Assembly (NCBI RefSeq): GCF_018977255.1
Contig: NW_024704742.1
Coordinates: 113,958,001 to 114,022,000, forward strand
Source: Callorhinchus milii
Lineage: Eukaryota
Direction of reading: 5' to 3'
DNA length: 64,000 nt
Shown here: piece after piece, positions 9,963 through 63,517 of the stretch
How positions within the stretch are numbered: position 1 is the stretch's first letter
Layout of the letters: each line of letters starts with the position of its first letter
Notes under the pieces: model-generated
What the model was told of the DNA's origin: nothing
The model's input: the letters and a program-made list of their open reading frames with translations, nothing else
The model's database searches: none
Made by a program: the position numbers and the translations under genes

Positions 9963-10430
9963 CAATTTACATTTATATTAGCACTTTTCATCTCGGGAGA
10001 CCATCTCAAAGCGCTTTGCATAGTTGGGTACCTGAGGGAGGAGAAACACCTGAAGATAATGGGGTGGGGGAGTGAACGGATCATTACTGTTATTAGTTGG
10101 AGGTAAGTCTTAAGGTGGATTTTAAAAGTGGGGAGGAATAGGGCAAGTTGGAGGGACTCTCGAGTTCCATAGAGTAAAATATCACCACCAACAACTTGCA
10201 TTTATATAGCGCCCCACATGCAGCGCTTATAATAATCCTTGCATCTGATATAACATCTTATCATGTCTTTCAGACGTATCAAAGGACTTCACAGAATATT
10301 CTTCAAAGTGAATTGACTGTATATTTTGTGGGTAAAACGCAGCAGCTAATTGCACACACCAGTGTCCCACAAACAGTCGTGGATCGTGTGACCAAATACT
10401 ATTTTTTAACAGATTATTACCCCAAAAAGT
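9963..10430 (-). mobile_element. Cluster of L2 3' ends (~9963-10170, ~10190-10227) and a SINE 3' half (~10228-10430)
   Basis: Three successive reverse-complement tail motifs (ttacatttatattagcac; caacaacttgcatttatatagcgcc; aataatccttgcatctgata). Confidence 0.75.
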
Positions 10431-13224: not shown

Positions 13225-13890
13225 ATAATAATACTTGCATATAATACTTATCACATTAACAAGACATCTCAAAATGCTTCAATTCACAGGGTTTAACTGT
13301 GAAGTGTAGTGACTGTGTATTTACAACAACAACAACAACAACAAGATTCCATTTATAAAGCGCCTTTCACGTCAGGAGGACGTCCCAAGTCGCTGCACAG
13401 TTGGGTCATGACCCGAGCAGGGGGGAAATGGTCAGGAGGAGGGGAGGGAAGGGAGGGAGCGAGGAGGGGGGAAATGGTCAGGGTGAGGGGAGGGAAGGGA
13501 GGGAGCGAGGAGGGTGAAGAGAGTCGAGAGGGGAGCTGAAGGCTCGGTCAAAGAGAAAGGTTTTGAGACCGGCCTTGAAGGAGGAGAGGGAGGAAGCAAG
13601 GCGAAGGCATTTATAAGTGAAAGCAGCAGCCAATTTGCAACAAGGAATGTCCCACACACAGCCATGATATGAACGACCAATTGTATCTGGGGGATTGTTG
13701 GCCAGGCCATTGGGAGAATCTCCTTTCTTGTTTCAGTAGCACCATGGATCTTTAACATCCTCCTGAACAGGCAGACAAGATCTTGGTTTTAATGTTTCAT
13801 CCAAAGGATGTTACCCACAACACCACAATGGAGCATCAGCCTAGACGATGAACTCAAAGACGGAACGTGATGCATGAGCCCACAACCTTC
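13225..13890 (-). mobile_element. DeuSINE split by an L2 insertion
   Basis: Tail at 13225-13323; body resumes at 13609 (gcagccaatttgc...ggatctttaacatcc...ttttaatgtttcatcc). Confidence 0.75.
13324..13608 (-). mobile_element. Young L2 3' end with an internal ~41 bp tandem duplication
   Basis: (AAC)n tail, gcgcctttcacgtcaggaggacgtccc, FKAGLKTFLF on the minus strand; attta on both sides. Confidence 0.9.
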
Positions 13891-20032: not shown

Positions 20033-22935
20033 CTAATTCCACCTACCCACCTTTTCCCCATATCCCTTAATCCCTTTATCCACAAGAAATCTATCAATCT
20101 CAGTCTTGAATATGTCCAAGGACTGAGCATCTGCAGTCCTGTGGGGTAGAGAATTCCATAAATTTACTACCCTCTGAGTGAAGAAGTTTTTCCTCAACTC
20201 AGTGCGAAAGGGCTTAGCCTTAATTTTAAGACTGTGACCCCTGGTTATAGTTTCTCCAACCAGGGGAAAAAGTCTCCCACTATCTATTCTGTCGTGCCCC
20301 CTAATCATCTTATCGGTTTCTATAAGATCACCTCTCATTCTTCTATATTCTAGAGAATATAGGCCTAAATTGTTCAACCTATCCTCATAACTCATCCCCT
20401 CATCCATGGTACCAACCTAGTAAATCTACGTTGTACCCCCTCCAAGGCGAGTACATCCTTTCTTAAATAAGGAGACCAAAACTGCACACAATATTCTAGG
20501 TGCGGTCTCACCAGGGCCCTATACAGTTGCAGCAAGACTTCCCTACTCTTATATTCTTTTGTAACAAATGCCAACATACCATTAGCCTTCCTAATTACTT
20601 GCTGTACCTGCAAACTAACTTTTTGTGACTGGTGTACAAGACACCCACGTCCCTCTGAACGCTAACACTATCTAGTCTCTCCCCTTCTAAAAAATAATCT
20701 GTTCTACTGTTTTTGCCACCTAGGTGGATGACCTCACACTTCCCTACATTATACTTCATCTGCCACCTATTTGCCCACTCACCTAGCCTATCTATAACTT
20801 GTTGCATTTTTTTAATGTTATCCTCGGTGTTTACTCTCCCTCCTAGTTTAGTATCATCCGCAAATTCGGATATATTAAGTTCAATGTCCTCATCTACATC
20901 GTTGATGTAGATTGTAAATAGTTGAGGCCCAAGGATTGATCCATGTGGCACTCCACTAGTCACATTCCGCCAATCTGAGAAGGACCCGTTTATCCCTACT
21001 CTTTGTTTTCTTCCCGTTAGCCATTCTTCAATCCATGCTAATATATTCCCCTTAATTCCATGGGCCCTAATCTTGAGGATCAACCTTTTATGTGGCACCT
21101 TATTGAATGCCTTTTGGAAATCTAAATACACTACATCCACTGATTCCCCCCTATCTAATCTACTTGATATGTCCTCAAAAAACTCTAAAAGATTTGTTAA
21201 GCATGACTTCCCTGTTGTAAAGCCATGTTGACTCTGTCTAATCATATTGTGATCCTTTAAGTAACCCACTACGACATCCTTAATTAAGGATTCTAGAATT
21301 TTCCCTACCACCGATGTTAGACTAACTGGTCTACAGTTCCCCATCTTTTCTCTCCCACCTTTCTTAAATAGTGGTGTGACGTTTGCGATCTTCTAATCAA
21401 TGGGAACTGTTCCAGAATCCAAAGAATTTTGGAAGATCAGACACAAGGCCTCCACTATCTCATGAGCTACCTCTTTTAAAATCTGAGGATGCAGACCATC
21501 AGGTCCAGGGGACTTGACACTTTTTAATGCTAACAATTTCCCTAGCGCCAATTCTTTGCTAATGTAAATTTTCCTAAGTTGCTCTCTATCATTAGCCCCT
21601 TGGTTCATCTCTATTTCTGGTAAACTTCTTGTGTCTTCCACAAGCAAAAGTATTTATTTAGGGACTCTTCCATAACCTTGTCCCCCATTATAATTCCTCC
21701 TATCTCTGCCTGTAATGGACCCACATTTATTTTTGCTAGCCTATTCCTCTTAATGTATTTATAAGAACTCTTACAATCTGTCTTAATGTTCCTAACTAGC
21801 TTGCCCTCATAATCCATTTTCTCACTCTTAATGAGCTTTTTGGTTTTCCTTTGTTGGTACCTAAAACACTCCCAGTCCTCAGGTTTGCTACTCTTTTTGG
21901 CAGTTTTATAGTCCTTTTCTTTTAGTTTTATACTTTCTCTAACTGCTCTAGTTAGCCATGAATGAACTGCTCTCCCTGTGGTACTCTTATTCCTCAAGGG
22001 AATATGTGACCGCTGAGAATTTTGCACTACATCTTTAAACGTTTGCCACTGTTGGTCTATTGTCATATCCATTAATCTAATTCCCCAGTCTATTTTAGCT
22101 AATTCTTCCCTCATACCTGCAAAGTTAGCTTTATTTAAATTTAAGACCCTTGCTTCGGATTTGACTACATCGCTCTCTAACTTAATGCTAAATTCTATCA
22201 TGTTATGATCACTCTGCCCTAGAGGAGCCTTAATATCTATATTACCGACTAGCCCTGTTTCGTTACACAAAACAAGGTCTAGGATGGCCTGTCCCCTAGT
22301 TGGTTCCTCAGCATATTGCTCCAGAAAGCTATCTCTCATATACTCTATAAACTCCTCCTCTACCCTGCTTTTGCCGATTTGGTTTTCCCAATCTATGTGA
22401 AGATTGAAATCACGCACTATGACTGTATTACCTTTGCTATATGTTCCTCTAATTTGCTGATTAATACCCTGCGCTATGCTGTGATCACTGTTTGGGGGTC
22501 TATAAACTACTACCACTAATGTTTTCTGTCCCTTGTTATTTTGTAATTCTACCCATACCATCTCTACATCTGGTTATCTGATTTGAAATCTTTCCTCTCT
22601 ACTGTTTTTATTCCATCCTTTATTAACAAGGCTACCCCCCCACCTTGTTTTCCACATTGTCTATCCTTCCTATAAACTGAAAACCCCGAAATATTTAACT
22701 CCCACCCTAGATCTTCCTGTAACCATGTCTCAGTAATGGCTACTAGATCATACTTATTTGTATCTATCTGTGCCTTTAATTCATCTACCTTATTCTGAAT
22801 GCTTTGTGCAACCAGATATAGCGATTTTAATTTATTACCATTTCCCCTACTCTCTGATGCCCTATCTTCTTTACTGAGCTTCTTACCCCTCTTTGACCTA
22901 TTCTGTTTATCTCTCTTGCTATTCTGATCTGCCAC
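20033..22935 (-). pseudogene. CR1 ORF2 (AP endonuclease + reverse transcriptase), broken into ~6 pieces by frameshifts
   Basis: APE motifs AITETWL, YRPP, RDFN, LDLVL, SDHN; RT motifs KSPGPDG, RPVSLTSVVGK, QHGF, YLDFQKAFNKVPH, GVPHGS, FADDTKL; C-terminal LEYCVQFWSP, TRGH, WNSLP. Confidence 0.95.
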
Positions 22936-23019
22936 CTTTAGTTTTCTGAATACTGCTGGCTTGCGATTATTTCTAATTGTATCCCCCCCTTTACTAGTTT
23001 GAAGCCTTATTTACCAACC

Positions 23020-40349: not shown

Positions 40350-40657
40350 GAGTCCTGTAGCTCAGTGGTTAGAGCACTCGCCTCACAAGCAAGAGACCTG
40401 GATTCGATTCCCAGCAGGGCAAAACCTTGGGCAAGTTTCCTTACTCCACATGCCTAATAATAATCCCTCAAGAAAAAAAAACAAAATAATAAATTGGTCA
40501 CTTCAATCCACGACTGTTTGTGGGACACTGCTGTGCACAACTGGCTGCCACGTTTTACCCACAAATATAGTCAATTCACTTTACAGTATATTCTGTGAAG
40601 CGCTTTGAGACGTCTGGAAAACATGAAAAGTGCTATATCAAATGCAAGAATTATTAT
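40350..40657 (+). mobile_element. Full-length tRNA SINE (diverged short variant)
   Basis: A/B boxes, core and tail as in the other copies. Confidence 0.92.
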
Positions 40658-40959
40658 GAATTAAAATACAAGTATATTATATTCATGACTAGCCTTCTCC
40701 ACTCATGACACTGTTTCCTTAAAGAATTTGAATAAAGTTGTGAGACACGATCACTTATTGTGCTTTATGACCTGCAGTGAGTATGCCATACAGGGAATCC
40801 TGTAAAGTGCTTTGAGATAGACTCCTGACACAAAAGGCACTACATCAAATGCAAAGATTTTTATTATTGCTTCTGAACTCATGCTAAATGTCTCTTATGA
40901 CCTCTATGTTGTTTAGATGAATATTTTCGCATAAAATGCTCTGCTGCATAGTTCATTGA

Positions 40960-41584: not shown

Positions 41585-41924
41585 AGCCTGGCTCAGTTGG
41601 TAGCACTCTCGTGTCTGAGTCAGGAGGTTGTGGGTTCAAGCCCTATATTGGGAATTTTAAAGCATAGTTTAGGCTGTCACTTCAGTGCTGAGGGTGTGCT
41701 GTATTTCGAAGGGGCAGTCCTTCAAATTAGATATTAAACCGAGGTCCTGTCTGGCTGTTCAGATGGACATTTAAGATCCAAAGTCACTATTCGAAAAGAG
41801 AAGGGGTTTCCCCCCAGTATACTGGACAAAAGTCTCCCAATAAAATTGGTCATTCACATGGCTGTTTGTGGGTTATTATGTTGGCTGCCACATTTATCTA
41901 AAGGATGCACAGTCACTCCACTTA
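41585..41924 (+). mobile_element. DeuSINE (head + body), 3' end replaced by an inverted SINE
   Basis: ggctcagttggtagcactctcgtgtctgagtcaggaggttgtgggttcaag head; ttaaaccgaggtcctgtctggctgttcagatggac Deu-like body. Confidence 0.85.
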
Positions 41925-42110
41925 TAATAATAATAATAATAATAATCCTTGCATTTGATATAGCGCTTTTCACGTCTTCTAGATGACTCAAATCGCTTCA
42001 CAGAATATGCTGCCAAGTGAATTGCCCATATATTTGTGGGCGAAATGCGGCAGCCAATTGCACACAGCAGTGTCCCACAAACAGTCGTGGATTGAAAACG
42101 ACCAAGAATA
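41925..42110 (-). mobile_element. SINE 3' half
   Basis: (TAA)n followed by ccttgcatttgatatagcgcttttcacgtc. Confidence 0.9.
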
Positions 42111-42693
42111 TTTTCTTTTAAGAATTATTAGGTTATTGTTGACCGTTATTCAGTTACTTTGCTCTTTCCTATTTTCTCTCTTTGACAATGGAACATATGA
42201 AATTCACCTGGGTCTAGATTTACTCTACCATTGTAATATTTTAGAGTGACCAGATTCTGGCAAATTGTTGAATTCAGCCTTAACTTTCAAGCCATTGTTC
42301 TGCATTTTTTGAAAAGAACCATAGAAATTCTGCTTCAAAATTAAAGCTATATTTGCCAAATCTGAACTCAGGTGGAATCTCTACCCATAATGGCTAAAGT
42401 TCTTTTTTTCAGTAATCTTAGTGAAATTGAAGTTGAAGATGTGCATAAACAGGTTGCAATGTCCTGATATTGAGCTGATGAACTGTTTATTGCTACTCCC
42501 AGTATTCCACCCGTCAGAAACCAGCATAAAAATCATCCACAACAAAACTTCTGACAACAAAAACAAGATTACATTTGTATAGCGCCTTTCATGTCGGGAG
42601 GACATCCCAAAAGACCATTGAGCTATTCATAGCAGGACCGGAAGGGAATTGTACAGAGGAGTTTCATGTGTAGGGGAGGCTGGGATATTGTAT

Positions 42694-42850
42694 ACTGTTT
42701 GTGGGACACTGTTGTGCACAATTGGCTGCCGCGTTTCGCCCACAAATATACGGTCAATTCACTTTACAGTCTATTCTATGAAGCGCTTTGAGACATCAAA
42801 AAGATGTGAAAAGCGCTATATCAAATGCAAGGATTATTATTATTATATTA
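42694..42850 (+). mobile_element. SINE 3' half
   Basis: ctgtttgtgggacactg...aagcgctatatcaaatgcaaggattattat. Confidence 0.9.
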
Positions 42851-43479
42851 TTTATGCTACATCTTTGATGGTGCTATACAATTGATGGTGCTTGGAAAAT
42901 AGAAAATGTTTATGCACAACTTATTTTCTCTACAACAATGAGGGTCCATAACCACATGAAAATCTCTACCCTTTTGAGTTGTACTGTACATAGCAATATT
43001 GTCAAGTGGTCCAAAGGACACAGGACTTCAAAGATGCCTACATCATAATTTTAATATCTACATAGGAAATATTTTACATTTTATTTGTTTATTATACAAA
43101 TATATTAATTGCACATTGTTTCTAAGTAACATAGATGTTCAAATCTTTAGATGGCCAATTAAATTAGCTTTACTGTAATTTTGTGTTGTGATTATTGTAT
43201 ATTATTTTGATTCAAGTGGTGTGGGACATCCTCCTATGTGAAATGCTTTATATAAATGTAAATTTGTATTGTATTGCAAATTACCTGCATCACACAATAA
43301 TGCAGGAATTAGGCTGGATTCTCTTAATGAGATCAAATTGTGATATGTCTATGTTTTAGCTGACTTAAATATGTTGTCTCTTGAAAAAGCTGTCCTCCTT
43401 CAAGCGGATAAGTTAAAATAACTATACATAAATTGAGATACTTAGCAACATATCCATAAAACAATAATGTAAGAATTCT

Positions 43480-44670
43480 TTAAAGAGTTAACTGAATATG
43501 TAGATCGAGGTAGTGCTGTGGAAGTAATGTATTTGGATTTCCAAACGGCATTTTATAAGGTGCATATTGGAAGACCGGGGGAGAAACTTAGGGCACATGG
43601 AATAGTGGGAAATATGGCGATTTGGATGGAAAGGTGATTGAAGAATAGAAAGCAAAGAATAAGGCTAAAAAGGTGCTTTTCTAGTTAGAGAAAGGTAATT
43701 AGTGGCTACAGGGGATCTGTGCTGGGGCCTCTCCTTATTTCCATATATATCAATGATATTGGGTTGAATATTCTGGGTAAAATATCAAAGTTTTGCAGAT
43801 GACACCAAGCTAGAAAGTATAGTGAATAGCGATGAGGTTAGCAAGAAACTGCAAGAGGATTTAAACAGATTAGAACAATGGGCTGATCAGTGGCAAAATT
43901 TGTACAAATTGTTGGTTTGGGCATAACTTAATTACTGCATCCAGTTTTGGAGACCTCACTTCAGGAAAGATGTTAAGGCCTTGGACAGGGTGCAGAAGAG
44001 GTTTACAAGAATGATTTTGGGGACGAAGGGCTACAGTTATGAGGAGAGATTGAAGAAGTTCAGTCTGTTTTCATTAGAGCAGAATTGTTGACCTATTAGA
44101 GATGGACAAAATTACAAAGGGGATTTACCAGGGTAAATAGGGAGACATTATTTCCATTGATATGGGAGTCAGTGACTAGAGGACATATAATAATAATAAT
44201 AATCCTTGCATTTGATATAGCGCTTTTCATGTCTTCTAGACGTCCCAAAGCGCTTCACAGAATATACTGTAAGGTGAATTGACTGTATATTTGTGGGCGA
44301 AAGAGTCAGCCAATTGCACACAACAATGTCCCACAAACAGTCGTAGATTAAAAATGACCAATTTATTATTGTTTTTTTTTGGAGGGATTATTATTAGGCG
44401 TGTGGAGTAAGGAAACTTGCCCAAGGTTTTGCCCTGCCTTGAATTGAACTCAGGTCTCTCGCTTGCATAGCGAGTGCTCTAAGCGCTGAGCTACAGGACT
44501 CCACATAGTTATAAAATAGCCGCAAAAACATAGAAAGGAGAACTTGGAAGTATTTTTTTCACCCACAAAGTTATTGGGATGTGGAATGGTCTGCCGAGTA
44601 GGGTAGTTGAGGTGGGTCCATGGTAGCTTTCAAAACAAAAGTAGACAGGCACATGAAAGACAGGAGCTTG
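43480..44670 (+). mobile_element. Old CR1 RT fragment interrupted by a SINE
   Basis: tatttggatttccaaacggcattt (YLDFQ.AF), gcagatgacaccaagct (ADDTKL), cagttttggagacctcac, actagaggacat (TRGH). Confidence 0.8.
44188..44505 (-). mobile_element. Full-length tRNA SINE inserted in CR1
   Basis: Complete on the minus strand; acata at both junctions (44183-44187, 44503-44507). Confidence 0.95.
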
Positions 44671-45189
44671 AAGTCACAATGTATTTGTAGGTGAATTTGT
44701 AGAATAGGAGAAAGCTCACAAATGTATACTAAATGCAACTCCAACTAAGTTATAAAGTTATAAAATAATGGAAACTGCATAGAGCGAAAGGGTATAATTC
44801 CATCTGGGGGGTCTGTTGCCACTCATAAACAAGTTGAGTTGTTGGGAACTTAATTGAACCATGGCTTGTAACTCCCTCCAGAGTATGTTGTTCCCTACGT
44901 AAAAAAAAGTATTAAGATATGGTCACCTTTTAATGTAGCTTTCAGACATTCACTGAGTACAGAGTGCACATTGCCTCCTGTGTTTTCTACCAGACCTGAC
45001 CCTCCTTGTACTCACCACAGGGAATAATACTGATATTTTTCAATATGGCTTATATTTGTTTTATGAGTCCTACCGTACGGAAAAAAAAATTGCGACTTGT
45101 TCTACTACAATTGTACCTTCATAAATCAATAAAGTGTTGTGTATTACACATTTTTTTAAACATGTCCTTATATGCTTATATGAATGTGA

Positions 45190-46004
45190 ACATTGCTGAT
45201 TGGCTCGCGCCAGTGCCTCTGCACCTTAGGCTCTGGCAGCATCAACCTCCATGGTTGCACACTACAACTCACCAAGCCAGTCAGGAACCCAGGTGTCTTG
45301 TTTGATCCTCAACTGTCCTTTCTTCCCCACGTCCAAGCCATGACCCGCTCTGCCTTCCCTCACCTCTGTAACATTGCCCAACTAAGCCACTACCTCAACC
45401 CTCAGGCCGTTGAAGCTCTTGTTCATGCCTTCATTATCTCCAGGCTCGACTATGCAAATCCTCTGCTTGTCGGCCTTCCCAACTCCTCCCTCCACAGGCT
45501 ACAGACAATCCAGAACTCTGCAGCCCGTGTCCTCTCCCGCACCAAACTCCGTGACCCCATCTCCCCCATTCCCGCCCGACTCCATTGGCTCCCTATCCTT
45601 CAAAGAATCCAGTTCAAGATCCTGGTCCTCACCTACAAAGCTCTCCATGGCCTCGCCCCACTCTACCTCTGTGACCTCCTAACCCCTTACCAACCTGCCC
45701 GTTCCCTCCGCTCAGCCGGCTCCAGCCTGCTCTACGTCCCCCGACCCATCCACCCCACCATTGGCGTGAGAGCCTTTAACCATTCTGTCCCAATCTCAGG
45801 AATTCCATACCCCAATCACTTCGCCTTGCCCCCTCCTTAGCCTTCTTCATGTCCTGCCTCAAGACCCTCCTCTTCGACCATGCCCTCTTCTCCCTTCTCC
45901 CACCCTGATCCCAGCTCGGGTCTGAAATTCTGTACACTGTCTAGCGCCTTGTGACGTCCTCCCAATGTGAAAGGCGCTATACAAATGTAATCTTGTTGTT
46001 GTTG
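45190..46004 (+). mobile_element. L2 3' ~0.8 kb
   Basis: 215 aa ORF with SRLDYANPLL, IQNSAARVL, LHWLP, YKALHGLAP; (GTT)n tail. Confidence 0.95.
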
Positions 46005-46319
46005 CTTACTCATGTTGGTACAAAACAAAAACAAATAGCATTAGCCAAATACTTCACTTTGTGAAAAATTAGAATTCCTTTACTGAAAAGAACGGCATTT
46101 AAAATACAGATCAAGTCCCTGTTCATGGGGTCTCCATGTGGTCATGGGTGAATACCGATAATGTAGTGACTATTTCTTCCACAATGTCCATGAATCAGTC
46201 TAGAATGGACTGTAACAGAGGTACCTAACATAAGAACATAAAAATTTGCAAGGTAAAAGAAGAGCAAGGCCCATCCTGTTCACCATCCACCATCCTGGGA
46301 GTCCTCAGGTATATTCATA

Positions 46320-46591
46320 CCTCTGTTTACCTAGCAGTAGGTAGGAATCCAGTTGTTAATCGATTGGCGGATCGCTTTTCCGGGATAATACTTCCTTCAA
46401 AAAAATTAATAAATTGGTCACTTCAATCCACGACTGTTTGTGGGACACTGCTGTGTGCAATTGGCTACCGTGTTTATAAAATATAAACACAAAACATACA
46501 GTCAATTCACTTTACAGTGTGTTCTGTGAAGCGCTTTGGGACGTCCTCCTGACGTGAAAAGCGCTATATCAAATGCAAGGATTATTATTAT
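46320..46591 (+). mobile_element. Long-variant SINE lacking its head
   Basis: ctctgtttacctagcagtaggtaggaatccagttgttaatcgattgg, then core and tail. Confidence 0.85.
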
Positions 46592-46774
46592 TTATTTAAA
46601 TACAAGTATAATATATCCATGACTAGCCTTCTCCACTCATGACACTGTTTCCTTAAAGAATTTGAATAAAGTTGTGAGGCACGATCACTTATTATTATTA
46701 TGATCTGCAGTAAGTATGACATACAGGGGATCCCGTGAAATGCTTTGAGATAGACTCCTGACACAAAAAACACT

Positions 46775-46881
46775 ACAAAATATACAGTCAATTCAATTTA
46801 CAGTATTTTCTGTGAAGCGCTTTGAGACATCTCAGAGACGTGATAAGGCGCTATATCAAAATGCAAGGATTATTATTATTA
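46775..46881 (+). mobile_element. SINE 3' fragment
   Basis: caaaatatacagtcaattc...gcgctatatcaaaatgcaaggattattatt. Confidence 0.85.
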
Positions 46882-47002
46882 TGCATTCTCATTTCCATCT
46901 GTTTTGCTAATTAAAGCAGTGTTTCCAATGCCTCTATGGGTTGAGTGGCACTTCCAGCTCTCACACGCATTGTGGCTCCAAGAGTGGTCTTGTATTGCAC
47001 AT

Positions 47003-47318
47003 TGTCCTGTAGCTCAGTGGTTAGAGCACTCACTTTGCAAGCGAGAGACCTGAGTTCAATTCCAGGCAGGGCGAAACCTTGGGCAAGTTTCCTTATTCCA
47101 CACGCCTAATAATAATCCCTCCAAAAACCAAAAACAATAATAAAAATTGGTCATTTTCAATCTACGACTGTTTGTGGGACATTGCTGTGCGCAATTGGCT
47201 GCCGCGTTCGCCCACAAATATACAGTCAATTCACTTTACAGTGTGTTCTGTGAAGCGCTTTGGGACGTCCTCCCGATGTGAAAAGCGCTATATCAAATGC
47301 AAGGATTATTATTATTAT
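47003..47318 (+). mobile_element. Full-length young tRNA SINE
   Basis: Very similar to the 12620 and 27090 copies. Confidence 0.95.
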
Positions 47319-48256
47319 AAGTGGAGTGACTGTGCATCCTTTAGATAAATGTGGCAGCCAACATAATAACCCACAAACAGCCATGTGAATGACCAATTTT
47401 ATTGGGAGACTTTTGTCCAGTATATTGGGGGGAACCCCCTTCTCTTTTCGAATAGTGACACTGGATCTTAAATGTCCATCTGAACAGCCATTATTGTTGC
47501 CTATGAGAAAGGGATGGAAAGCCCAATGTTGATGCTGACACAGGAAGTTGTAAACCAGGCTGAGGCCAGGGAGGCCCCAGGAGGGTGTTTAAGAATAGAC
47601 AACAGATAAGGCAACAGTTTATGAATAAAATTTTCAATCAATGATTGAAAGGACCTGTGAAAACTAATGTGTTGAATGTAATGTTTTTCATTTGGTAGAA
47701 GTAAAGCTTTTTTAAACTGTTCACAGTCTGATTTGCCTGTGCATCTGGTGGAAATTGAAGGAGTTGAAAACAAGAAGCAAGGTTGAATGCAGGAATATTT
47801 GAGAAGGCTATGAGAAATAGTCTTTCCTCTATTCATATGTTCCATAATAAGTAATTGATGGTTGTGAAGGTGTGCTAGGTGTATAACTTAGTTAGTTGAC
47901 CTACAAAGTAAAGCCTAGTAAACGTCTATGAAAGCAATGTTTCACCTTGTTTGCATTATGTGGTTGGATACTGGCCTAACAATGTGCTAATAAAAACATT
48001 TTATTGCACTGGTCTGTTCTTTCCAAGACTTGAGCTCATAATTGAGGTTGACATCCATTGCATTACTGAGGGAGCACTGAATTGTTGGAAGTGCCATACT
48101 TAAATGAGTTTCAAACTAACCTTTTACCTGTCTTTGCTTGTGGTTCAGGTGGGCATTAAGTAAGCTGTGGCACTGTTTGGAAATGATCAGGGAGTTTTCC
48201 TGGCATCGATGCAAATATTCCACCCTCACACAAATTTACCACTAAATTAATTGGGT

Positions 48257-49252
48257 CAATAATAACAATCCTTGCTTTTGATTTAGCGCTCTTCACGTCT
48301 TCTAGACCTTTCAAAGCGCTTCACAGAATATACAGTAAAGTGAATTGACAGTATATTTGTGGGCGAAACGAGGCAACCAATTGCGCACAGCAGTGTCCCA
48401 CAAACAGTCGTGGATTGAAGTGACCAAATTATTATTGTTTTTTAAGGACTATTATCCCCAGAAAAGCAATCAGCCAATCGACTAACAACCAGGTTTCTAC
48501 TTCCTAACATAACATCCTCCGTAACATCGCCCGACTCCGCCACAACCTCACCCCTCAGGCCGCTGAAACTCTTGTTCATGCCTTCATCACCTCCAGGCTC
48601 GACTATGCAAACACCATGCTTGTTGGCCTTCCCAACTCCTCCCTCCACAGGCTGCAGATAATCCAGAACTCTGCACCCGTGTTCTCTCCCGCACCAAACT
48701 CTGCAACTCCATTTCCCCCACTCTCACCCGACTCCATATTCTTCAGAGGATCCAGTTCAAGATCCTGGTTCTTGCATACAAAGCCCTCCATGGCCTCGCC
48801 CCACCCTACCTCTGCGACCTCCTAAACCCCTACCAATCTGCCCGTTCCCTCCACTCAGCCAGCTCTGGCCCACCCGTCCCACCATTGGCAGGAGAGCCTT
48901 CAGCCACTCTGTCCCCAACCTCTGGAATTCCACCCCCAATCACTCCGACTCGCCCCCTTCTTAGCCTCCTTCAAGTCCCGCCTCAAGATCCTTCTCTTCG
49001 ACCATGCCATCAGCCACCCCCCTTCCCCTCCCCTCCCGACCCCAGCTCGGGTCTGAAATGCTGTACTCTGTCCAGCGGCTTGGGACGTCCTCCCGACGTG
49101 AAAGGCGCTGTACAAATGTAATCTTCTTGTTGTTGTTCCTGCAAGATAAACAGAGGCGTGTGGAGTAAGGAAATTTACCCATCATTTTGCCCTGCCAGCA
49201 ATAAAACCCAGGTCTCTCGAGTGCTCTAACCACTGAGCTACAAGACTCCACA
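48257..49252 (-). mobile_element. Long-variant SINE split by an L2 (body 48257-48505, head 49136-49252)
   Basis: Halves rejoin to give ctctgtttatcttgcaggaagtagaaacctggttgttagtcg; ttcct at both junctions. Confidence 0.85.
48506..49135 (+). mobile_element. L2 3' ~0.63 kb inserted in a SINE
   Basis: Highly similar to the 45.2-46.0 kb L2; (GTT)n tail. Confidence 0.92.
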
Positions 49253-49512: not shown

Positions 49513-49929
49513 CTCCCCTACCTACCTGCCCGTACCCTCCGTTCCTCTGGCTCCGGTCTGCTCCACGTCCCCCGCCCCAACCGCCCTACTATCGGTGGTC
49601 GGGCCTTCAGCCTCTCAGCCCCGAGGCTCTGGAACTCCATCCCCCAGTGCCTTCGCCGCTTCCTCCCTTTCCTCCTTCAAGGCCGGTCTCAAAACCTTTC
49701 TCTTTGACCGTGCCTTCGTCTCCCCTCTCGACTCTCTTCCTCCTCCTCGCTCCCTCCCTTCCCTCCCCTCACCCTGACCATTTCCCCCTCCTCTCTCCCT
49801 CCCTTCCCTCCCCTCACCCTGACCATTTCCCCCCTGCTCGGGTCATGACCCAACTGTGCAGCGCCTTGGGACGTCCTCCTGACGTGAAAGGCGCTCTATA
49901 AATGGAATCTTGTTGTTGTTGTTGTTGTT
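49513..49929 (+). mobile_element. Young L2 3' end with internal tandem duplication
   Basis: FKAGLKTFLFDRAF; gggacgtcctcctgacgtgaaaggcgc; (GTT)n tail. Confidence 0.92.
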
Positions 49930-50319
49930 CTAGTCACGAAAGCTGTTATCCCGAAAGCTCATCAAATACTAATCTTCATCTCAAATAGATTTGGCTATGA
50001 GATACATTTTATGGTACTTAGAAACTGGTAAATATAGCGGTATTCCTTAAGGCGTTCCATGTGTTAATTATCACAAGGAATACTTTTAGGAATACAGCAA
50101 ACTTGTTACTGTTTCTTAATTAGTCCCACCCTTGTGAGTTAAGAACTCCTACACTAACCTGGCTGTTCTCAGACTCCAATTTCTCCAATACCCAGCTTCC
50201 CTGTCAACTGGCTACAGTGAAAAAATACAGGGAACTAACTTTGAATTTTCAGTTTCCTGATATAAGTCAGATCACGGTTTAGAAGTCAATACTGTGCATG
50301 AAGTTTTAACTCAGGACAT

Positions 50320-61113: not shown

Positions 61114-62003
61114 TTCCAGAGAGTTTCCTGACTATGGGTTTTAATTTAGGAGCCCTGGTACTCTTAATTGTAACAAACTAGATGTTCTGCAACTCCATAA
61201 CAATCCCTGGAAGACATCTTCTGGTGGGATTCACAAAATGTAGCAGGCTCTAGCTTCATTTGTCCTCCTTACAACAATCTTACTCTTTTGTTCCCCACAA
61301 CATTCAGATCCCCCTGCAAGTTCAAAACAGAAAGAGAATTGGGTACTATGTGGACCAATTCACAAGAAGAAGGAAAATTACAAGGAAAATGTTTCTTCCA
61401 AGAAATACATCATTCTCCCCCCGCCAAAGAAACTTCATTTATTTCTCAATAAACCTAAGATCCATGTTATTTTAGATCTAACTTTTCCACACTTAGAAAG
61501 TGAACATAAAGCAGGCCAAAGGTTTGGGAGGCCAAACATAGTGTTTGGAACATACGTATGAAGTCATATTTCACAAGGACAGCATTTGGCAAAGCATAGC
61601 AGTGATTTCAACTTCCATTTTTGATACCTTTTAATATACGGGTGTGTAAGCAAAATGATCAATGTCTCCTAGCAATAACCCAGGAAAAATATAGTTTTTA
61701 TCAATGAAATTCAAAAAAACATGACATATTATTATCTGTAATTAACTATTTTTTGCTCACAGTGTTTTGAATGTAATGTTGTTTTCTTACCTCTCTATCA
61801 ATTGTGGTTTAACTTTCATTCATGTCTTGTATCTGGGCTGAGAAGACTATTGAATAGCAAATAGCCTGCCTTCCCACTGTATATGTAGGAAATATTTAAT
61901 TTTGCAATGCATCATGTACATCCAATCATATTGATATCTTCATAGTTAACATCATCACTACTTAAATGCTACTTAAAGTGGCTGCGTCTACTTAACGCTT
62001 CTT

Positions 62004-62120: not shown

Positions 62121-63517
62121 CATTTTATTATTATTCATCTGCAAAGGTAAACCAGAACATGTTACAAGTTAATTAGGTGTATCCAGGGAAAAGATTAATG
62201 CCTCCCAGGAATAACTCAGGAAAAATATAGTTTTAGCAAGTATGAATGAAAGTGACCACTCAAGAGGCAAATATATTTGATGTGAGTATTTTAAGTGGAC
62301 AACGCTTTGCTATGATCTCATAAACACTACAGGCGCAACCATCGTGATGGAAATGTGGAGGGAATGGGTTGGTGACTTCTTATTTTACCCTCCTCAGTGA
62401 CCGCATTTATCAAGGTTGCGATAATCACAACTGGTGACAATTAAAACATCAAATGTTGCAACATTCACAAGGTTAAGTTTTTGGCAGCATAAACAGATCA
62501 AATTTCTCAGAACCTGGATTGATGTATATCACACGCTCATATGATTTGGTCAGTATTGCTATGAAAAGTTCATTAAAATGGCTTTATGCATGCTTATAAA
62601 ATAGCAGAGAATTTGGGGGTCATTGTGTCATCTGTAATATTTTTCTTTAAATGTCCTATAAAATGTTTCAAATGTTCCTTACCATAGAGGACTGAGCTAC
62701 AGGTATCTTGCCATAATACCTGTAGCACAGGTAATAATGATAATAATTTTAATGAATAATGAACAAGGATGTTTTTCAAGAGGAAGAATATAAACAGGGA
62801 AAAAGCAGGGAATTGAAATTAGAGTAATCACCTCCCATGGATGAGCTAGTATCACCTTAGGTTCAATGGGAATGGCCTCCTTAATTGCTGGTACTGCTGT
62901 GATTCGATGTATCTACAATGCATGAGCAAACACAGAACTGTTGAGGAATATGGATACAGATAAGGTCAAAGAAATCGGATTCTTTCTAACACCCCTTTTA
63001 GTAGATTAATTATTCATAGGGCAAGTAGTTCAACGTGTACTTGCCAACATAAACATTTAAATATGTAAAAAAAAATTGTCAACTATAAAGGAACCATAAA
63101 TACAATGCTTGAAATATATCGTAGAAATGACACAAATTTCAAAAGTTTGAAGTTATTGCATCTATTATTACTTTCACTATTGCGGTTAAACTATATCCCT
63201 GGGGACTCATAGTTCTTGGGTAAAGATGGGTGTCCTATGTCAATAAAGTCAAATTTGGGTTTTCCATGATTGATTAAAGTGAATGTCTGGGGACATTTGT
63301 TTTGGATAAACAGCTTTTCTTATAAACGTACTGGATTATCTAAAAACCTTGCACTCTGAATCCAAACTGAAGGAACTTGATAGCTTTCAGTAAATTCCCA
63401 CTGTTCTCTGCTCATTAAACTGAAGCAGCCTTTTGTTTGCTTTCCAAGCTGTCTTCAACCTTCCTGAGGGACTTAAGCTCTGCAAGAGAAATGTCTTTCC
63501 ATGATCAGCTCACTCAC

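Follow-up and report, generated by a model that had tools for sequence, protein, structure and literature searches.

The ATT tail of a young SINE (SINE B) was found to contain an inverted 174-nt copy of the 3' flank of a second SINE (SINE A), located 5.4 kb away in the stretch of Callorhinchus milii DNA that was analysed (64 kb, hereafter the window). On the sequence evidence, this copy was produced, with a probability of about 70%, by a DNA-templated switch from one SINE tail to the other, followed by end-joining, at or soon after the insertion of SINE B. A second capture was detected less than 1 kb from the first, 40660-40844 having been copied to 46594-46777. The two captures are referred to as case 1 and case 2, and their features are collected in Table 1.

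Table 1. Positions of the SINEs, donor tracts, captured copies and junction features of both captures in the window.
Feature	Positions	Strand	Remarks
SINE C, full length	40352..40657	+	template tail of case 2
Donor tract, case 2	40660..40844	+	SINE C flank entering an old SINE end, intact on to ~40868
Older SINE, second family ("DeuSINE" of the earlier note)	41585..41925	+	contains the case-1 donor; collinear with window copies across 41752
Donor tract, case 1	41752..41925	-	3' flank of SINE A
SINE A, 5'-truncated	41926..42131	-	template whose tail was entered
D5', 5' part of an older SINE	46316..46485	+	probably the element interrupted in case 2
D3', 3' end of a young B-type SINE, tail included	46486..46592	+	96/99 identical to SINE B
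Captured copy, case 2	46594..46777	+	direct orientation, 5.9 kb from donor (spacing 5934)
E, SINE 3' end	46777..46882	+	probable rest of the interrupted element
Candidate 5-bp target-site duplication, left	47001..47005	+	2-nt overlap with SINE B head
SINE B, young, near full length	47004..47316	+	tRNA head
Entry homology	47278..47316	+	27-nt motif without mismatch between A and B, followed by 12 nt of ATT repeats
Captured copy, case 1	47317..47490	+	opposite orientation to the donor; 1-nt microhomology at the last base
Two ATT units right of the case-1 copy	47490..47495	+	remnant of the tail, or a target for tail pairing
Candidate 5-bp target-site duplication, right	47493..47497	+	

The earlier note had described about 173 bp after the SINE B tail as the reverse complement of 41752-41924 with 4 mismatches. 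This was confirmed by pairwise alignment, in which 47317-47490 matched the reverse complement of 41752-41925 over 174 nt with 4 mismatches (copy/donor positions 47425/41817, 47435/41807, 47460/41782 and 47461/41781); the 173 nt lie inside this tract, which counts one base common to the right-hand junction. The complete inverted repeat (41752-41937 and 47305-47490) measures 186 nt and is 98% complementary, with arms 5367 nt apart, and one other copy above 85% of the case-1 flank was present in the window. The proposal that the sequence at 41.8 kb is the original also stood, since the donor is collinear with four window copies of the older family (at 1616, 13895, 32612 and 17535; 62-66% identity), whose alignments begin 53-169 nt upstream of 41752 and run across it. 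The same collinearity ruled out the 47-kb site as the donor. The donor is therefore identifiable, and it remains intact.

When polarised by the older-family copies, two of the mismatches were derived in the donor and one in the copy, and one was ambiguous. Mis-joined reads are conceivable at both entry junctions, since the repeat tails there are nearly identical, but the two copies differ by 2.3%, the changes fall on both of them, which argues against an assembly duplicate, and a mis-join would not lead back to a position where a remnant of the tail and a target-site repeat are both present. An assembly artefact is considered extremely unlikely.

SINE A gave no Rfam match for a tRNA head, and its tail consists of seven ATT units (41926-41946). 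A tRNA was matched in SINE B by Rfam (47003-47074, 46 bits); this element lacks the first ~5 nt of the family head, and four ATT units precede the copy. As had been noted earlier, the two bodies differ in their loops and identity begins at the shared terminal motif (47278-47304). The entry junction has about 40 bp of tail identity. The switch is placed in the identical terminal motif or tail, where a chimeric SINE body like that of Alu/Alu rearrangements would not show; the exit junction is not SINE-SINE and has 1 nt of microhomology, and no polyA/T tract was present. This asymmetry between entry and exit (27 nt plus ATT repeats vs 1 nt) fits synthesis starting at the tail. The 174 nt are situated between ATT units of the SINE B tail, with just 3-6 nt of tail on the right. 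The two ATT units on that side, which partly overlap the candidate target-site repeat, locate the copy within the SINE B tail junction (a tail 6-mer in any phase has a frequency of 0.0044 per position).

We infer the timing, that DNA was the template and that entry preceded exit. In this reading, a 3' DNA end that had come free within the SINE B tail of ATT repeats would have paired with the inverted tail of SINE A over the ~40 bp of identity, would have been extended 174 nt beyond that tail into the flank, and would then have been released. The released strand may have been rejoined to the other side of the SINE B tail by the 1 nt of microhomology, and copying of this kind would leave the donor as it was. 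The end could have come from second-strand synthesis during SINE B integration; alternatively, the tail may have been broken, or a fork stalled in it, shortly afterwards. One-sided invasion can be coupled to end-joining. A 1994 paper by Belmaaza and Chartrand reportedly deals with one-sided invasion. The donor direction, the entry at the common tail motif and the template switch suggested in the earlier note hold within the window. Counting against the model, SINE A was not the closest suitable tail, as three copies with 0-1 motif mismatch lie nearer (at 0.7, 3.1 and 4.5 kb).

The candidate 5-bp target-site duplication encloses SINE B together with the copy; its chance probability was 0.007 within 4 offsets, for a repeat picked in hindsight. 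No clear target-site duplication was visible by eye in three of five other full-length copies. Insertions of zebrafish L2 yielded 5-bp duplications in cells, according to the accessible part of that report (PMC4245944). Since the copy lies inside the SINE B tail and within this candidate duplication, a new end cannot be told apart from one broken later. The timing was estimated from substitutions. SINE B carried 3 private substitutions in 302 sites, in our own reading of six listed differences, after two that mark subfamilies and one CpG site miscalled by the majority rule had been set aside, and the case-1 flank pair showed 4 differences in 173. These rates were not different (Fisher p=1.0; 0.39 for non-CpG sites), so the copy would be about as old as SINE B. 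Against equal age, the flank looks, if anything, older than the non-CpG rate of SINE B predicts, P(>=4) = 0.038.

A 5.4-kb inversion between both tails, in which a staggered break duplicated the 174 nt in inverted orientation and the flanks of A and B were swapped, would predict the same present-day arrangement. In line with it, the 3' remainder of the older SINE is on neither side, its last ~85 nt not having been found beyond SINE A by sequence reading, and no host exon inside the interval fixes the orientation. A crude splice-site scan for host exons produced 42 candidates, all of which fell outside 39.2-50.1 kb. The window contains 77 stop-to-stop ORFs, and of 12 from other parts scanned against Pfam, five matched reverse-transcriptase or endonuclease families, three of them with scores over the curated cut-off, while the remaining seven had no match; no host gene was found by the splice-site scan and the Pfam scan of these 12 of 77 ORFs. 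The junction repeats, however, favour the unrearranged pairing: 5 bp are shared by SINE B and its right flank, and 4 bp pair SINE A with the donor-side flank. Swapped pairing yields a 3-nt repeat at B and, for A, only a 4-mer inside the element. Case 2 is direct, so it cannot be an inversion scar. An inversion is therefore regarded as very improbable.

In case 2, the copy differed from its donor by 17 differences in 185 columns, unevenly distributed (4/100 vs 13/85 in the distal part; Fisher p=0.010, or 0.09 with clusters counted once), the boundary of this split having been selected in hindsight. The copy follows D3', which resembles SINE B and not SINE C, and an alignment of the junction showed no tail remnant after it. 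D5' and E probably belonged to one element, as suggested by a common subfamily mark. An 8-bp repeat (46478-46485 and 46777-46784) encloses D3' and the copy, although it could alternatively be a product of SINE-SINE homology.

A reverse-transcriptase route during SINE B insertion was also weighed. The L2 enzyme may have primed B RNA at a nick in the complementary tail of A, the resulting flap of cDNA plus flank being moved to 47 kb, or it may have jumped between a local transcript of the flank of A and B RNA. The candidate target-site repeats, which enclose SINE and copy in both cases, the equal age of the copy and SINE B, and the lack of a tail remnant after the case-2 copy are consistent with such a route, and two reports, in the portions available, describe L1 insertions that contain templated genomic DNA and pieces derived from flaps (PMC11702581, 10.1101/2024.08.27.596794). 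Nevertheless, a primer start on the right-hand side requires a jump on 1 nt of homology, the flap variant requires additional breaks, the templates of the L1 insertions derive from ~15 bp around the site in the available portion (10.1101/2024.08.27.596794), and the extra nucleotides of ZfL2 are described there at 5' junctions (PMC4245944, PMC2666801, likewise in part). This route is judged improbable.

The earlier note had also argued against classical 3' transduction from SINE A, and this was borne out: A is headless, the body of B differs, and on the SINE strand T4 runs occur three times in the case-1 flank. A transcribable donor equal to the progeny element was found in neither case, D3' being unlike C. 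A further rival is transduction that started at a different source locus, or a subfamily composed of SINE plus flank, the SINE body having been converted afterwards, and read-through RNA was possible in case 2 (SINE C is full length, with the first T4 run of its flank only at 40858). The same missing head, T4 runs and differing donor and acceptor bodies nevertheless oppose it; neither copy terminates in a fresh donor-derived tail motif, and an RNA route leaves the 5-6 kb proximity, seen twice, unexplained. It is thus very unlikely.

Returning to the tail-to-tail switch, both captures might date from a single episode of repeated hops by a nascent strand between SINE ATT tails, from an acceptor zone (46.5-47.5 kb) to a donor zone (40.7-41.9 kb) and back, twice. 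The acceptors are less than 1 kb and the donor tracts ~0.9 kb apart, and the divergences are similar (3/99, 4/100 and 4/173), but the distal case-2 tract is more diverged (13/85). This single-episode reading is offered only tentatively and is rather doubtful.

Captures of this class are already described in print, and the observation is less novel than the earlier note implied. Repair-mediated duplications by proximal DNA capture (Pace, Sen, Batzer, Feschotte 2009; PMC2671141) are defined, in the accessible part of that paper, by a transposable element into which 50 bp or more have been inserted, with a mean of 162 bp, junction microhomology of 2-9 nt, filler or deletion, no polyA/T tract, an ad hoc 5-kb cut-off, an identifiable donor that stays intact, a single further copy in the genome, and an outgroup whose site is empty. 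The 174-nt copy in the SINE B tail is such an insertion, and both cases resemble them as short (174 and 185 nt), conservative copies of nearby DNA inside a transposable element with microhomology at one junction; 20 chimeric acceptors with two donors recall case 2. Here, in contrast, the distances to the donors, 5.4 and 5.9 kb, are slightly over the limit, and one junction has ~40 bp of SINE-tail identity and the exit 1 nt. The filter of that study (fragments <95% of consensus) would drop insertions at the extreme end of a near-full-length element, and its pipeline would not call case 1 because only 3-6 nt of tail remain on the right. Its species table, as far as accessible, is without cartilaginous fishes.

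Alu/Alu-mediated rearrangements by template switching (Song et al. 2018; PMC6071635) are likewise guided by SINE-SINE homology, and some junctions with non-repetitive DNA formed by microhomology. The part available describes kilobase-to-megabase deletions and duplications, chimeric Alu elements and GC-rich microhomology close to the A/B boxes, whereas here the switch occurred at an AT-rich 3' tail and returned after <200 nt. The templated insertions of LINE integration, for which an SDSA-like step was proposed (10.1101/2024.08.27.596794, PMC11702581, both in part), share a genomic template of <250 bp in a new insertion; their templates typically come from within 15 bp of the insertion point, in the case of L2 at the 5' junction (PMC4245944, PMC2666801, in part), unlike the >5 kb of both present cases and the tail-side position of the SINE B copy. 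One-sided invasion, FoSTeS and MMBIR (PMC4888836, in part) share one-end homology, low-processivity copying and return to the original template, but concern experimental and disease rearrangements without a tie to SINE tails. The elephant shark family history of CmiSINE, SacSINE1-CM and L2-2_CM (Luchetti et al. 2017; PMC5499810) includes a young tRNA-headed SINE whose 3' part is common to an older SINE family and an L2-like 3' end; flank capture is not among the topics of its accessible part. The tRNA head and the common 3' part suggest CmiSINE and SacSINE1-CM as names for the window SINEs. No report of tail-to-tail flank capture by L2-mobilised SINEs was found in the literature covered, which is weak evidence as most subscription journals lay outside it. 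The new elements are the copy inside the SINE B tail, the candidate target-site duplication around SINE and copy, and the second capture nearby.

The scar left behind is neutral and has no function in itself, and as a single non-coding instance of a described class it carries little weight. If the single-episode reading were true, SINE tails would regularly serve as launch and landing pads for the exchange of 3' flanks among neighbours, perhaps at a few percent of them (2 acceptors in 34 ends of a window chosen for having one; two events, which give no rate). If tail-to-tail capture were frequent, it would be a local duplication route governed by SINE density, and ~300,000 CmiSINE copies are reported (PMC5499810, accessible part). 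It would also mimic 3' transduction, misleading source-element mapping and SINE-flank markers, and would leave near-perfect inverted repeats able to pair in transcripts or seed inversions. The model predicts that flank sharing falls with distance, that entry is always at the tail and that exit is by microhomology.

Across the window, flanks were shared by 2 of the 561 tail pairs formed by the 34 tail-bearing ends, both within 6 kb. Their scores (274 for case 1 and 221 for case 2) were followed by 44, from overlapping flanks 128 nt apart, and by a best true background of 26. As 106 of the 561 pairs lie within 6 kb, finding both sharing pairs there has p of about 0.035, on two events only. No 5' flanks were shared in the 45 pairs of 10 heads (top score 22). 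The other low-copy pairs in the window were 65-87% identical or were members of repeat families. Additionally, a 95% pair (13322-13609 and 49648-49932), separated by 36 kb, carried the L2-like 3' end.

The 3' flank of SINE A, a 5'-truncated minus-strand SINE, was found again in inverted orientation in the tail of SINE B, a young, nearly full-length plus-strand SINE. The repeat finder returned an inverted pair of 186 nt (98% identity) with 5367 nt between its arms, and direct comparison gave four mismatches, in agreement with the earlier note, which had described such a copy. The copied flank accounted for 174 nt. Upstream of it, the two SINEs had different bodies and loops and were alike only in a 27-nt terminal motif and in ATT repeats (seven units in SINE A, four in SINE B), which is where the start of identity had been placed before. 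A transduction with conversion afterwards is improbable as an explanation. A 3' flank was shared in just two of the 561 pairs formed by the 34 SINE ends that bear a tail (scores of 274 and 221), the background being at most 26 apart from a single 44 caused by overlapping flanks.

Positions in the window of the two captured flanks, the associated SINEs and other features
Feature	Position	Remark
SINE A	41926-42131	minus strand
Older SINE holding the donor tract	41585-41925	
Case 1, donor and copy	41752-41925 / 47317-47490	
Inverted pair	41752-41937 / 47305-47490	
SINE B	47004-47316	plus strand
Candidate target-site repeat	47001-47005 / 47493-47497	5 bp
SINE C	40352-40657	plus strand, full-length
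Case 2, donor and copy	40660-40844 / 46594-46777	
Older SINE 5' part	46316-46485	
Young SINE 3' end before case-2 copy	46486-46592	
SINE 3' end after case-2 copy	46777-46882	
SINE within LINE-like fragment	44190-44504	minus strand, full-length
Older-family SINE, apparently cut	about 48000-48257 / 48258-48505	
Tandem or doubled SINE tails	1910-2138, 10190-10390	
Degraded non-LTR retrotransposon	20595-23010	minus strand
Young L2-like 3' ends	13322-13609 / 49648-49932	inverted
Direct local repeat	61653-61698 / 62189-62234	46 nt
Only N in the window	10717	distant from both captures

Four other window copies of the older SINE family aligned across position 41752, so the tract at 41.8 kb was the donor, as had been proposed. 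Against these copies, our reading of the alignment gave two derived bases in the donor, one in the copy and one ambiguous site. Since both had changed, the sequences argue for true divergence after duplication and against a duplicate made by mis-assembly; an assembly artefact is very improbable. The older SINE lacked its last ~85 nt beyond SINE A (42131 onward), likely through a deletion when SINE A inserted, or earlier.

SINE B carried a tRNA head (Rfam, 46 bits) and lacked about 5 nt common to four other full-length copies. To the right of the copy stood two ATT units (such a tail 6-mer occurs at 0.0044 of positions) and then unique DNA; the copy therefore sits inside the tail junction, not merely behind it. 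SINE B and the copy were together flanked by a candidate target-site repeat (chance of 0.007 within four offsets, uncorrected), whose length matches the 5-bp duplications that zebrafish ZfL2-1 is reported to produce in cells (PMC4245944). The same pattern, with an apparent 5-bp target-site repeat, was seen around the SINE within a LINE-like fragment, which combined a young body with the SINE A loop type, possibly a subfamily or the result of conversion.

SINE B differed from the majority of its relatives at six positions, three of them counted as private once two subfamily marks and one CpG miscall were set aside. Its private divergence (1.0%) was the lowest among five young copies, and the flank pair differed by 1.2% per copy. 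These rates were not different, so the capture was not clearly younger than SINE B; its age would be about 11 million years (95% range 3–28), at a rough rate from PMC5499810.

Homology was long on the tail side and almost nil on the far side, where the exit junction had one base in common with the donor. This points to copying that started at the tail, which favours the template switch originally suggested. A 3' end within the SINE B tail would pair with the SINE A tail, synthesis would run beyond it into the flank and release, and the released end would be rejoined at SINE B. This may have happened during second-strand synthesis as SINE B integrated, or at a break shortly afterwards; either timing is compatible with the candidate target-site repeat, with the remnant of the tail and with ages that are equal. 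An enzyme-driven route while SINE B inserted is unlikely; templated insertions at L1 sites (PMC11702581, 10.1101/2024.08.27.596794) provide the integration-coupled precedent, of far shorter range. An inversion with a staggered break is quite improbable, the junction repeats favouring unrearranged pairing. The feature is real and well defined, and the most probable reading is a neutral scar left by template switching, of a kind already known in general terms.

Of the classes described, the one that comes closest is the proximal repair-mediated duplication, for which PMC2671141 gives a mean length of 162 bp, donors that mostly lie no more than 5 kb away, locations inside transposable elements and some chimeric cases. 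The present case works like these, but is not filed among them because its distance is slightly beyond that cut-off and its entry homology far longer than their 2–9 nt junctions; tail-entry examples might exist among the junction figures of that paper. Alu-directed template switching (PMC6071635) is a precedent for the role of SINE homology. The SINE arrangement fits the description of CmiSINE, SacSINE1-CM and L2-2 in PMC5499810, the names following that description and not a consensus match.

Furthermore, while the single captured flank of the earlier note stands, a second capture had gone unmentioned. The flank of SINE C was repeated in direct orientation 5.9 kb away, with 17 differences in 185 columns, behind a young SINE end identical to SINE B at 96 of 99 positions and not matching SINE C. 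An old SINE end within the tract continued intact at SINE C and was cut at 46777, so SINE C was the donor. An older SINE appears to have been split here: the 3' subfamily mark of the piece after the copy was present in three of the four window copies sharing the 5' part; that the two belong together is something we infer, since raw identity placed this piece nearest to young copies (93%). An 8-bp repeat flanked the insert, for which SINE-SINE homology could be an alternative source. Differences were unevenly distributed (4/100, then 13/85; p = 0.010, or 0.09 with clusters counted once), which would fit error-prone copying or later conversion alike.

In both flank-sharing pairs the members lay within 6 kb of each other, as they did in 106 of the 561 pairs (p about 0.035), but three matching tails were closer to SINE B than SINE A was. 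That both captures were one tail-hopping episode, and such swaps common, is doubtful. What makes this a modest variant is that entry was on the tail side and within a candidate target-site duplication, and that a second case adjoins.

Additionally, by eye, another older-family SINE near 48 kb was apparently cut by a minus-strand SINE tail, in a tail-to-tail layout as at 41.9 kb. In the doubled tails, a second tail-like end followed close behind the first. The degraded retrotransposon had endonuclease and reverse-transcriptase Pfam matches in separate frames, and the L2-like ends were 94.8% identical over 288 nt, 36 kb apart. The direct local repeat (87%, 491 nt apart), with no further copies elsewhere in the window, is possibly another small local duplication.
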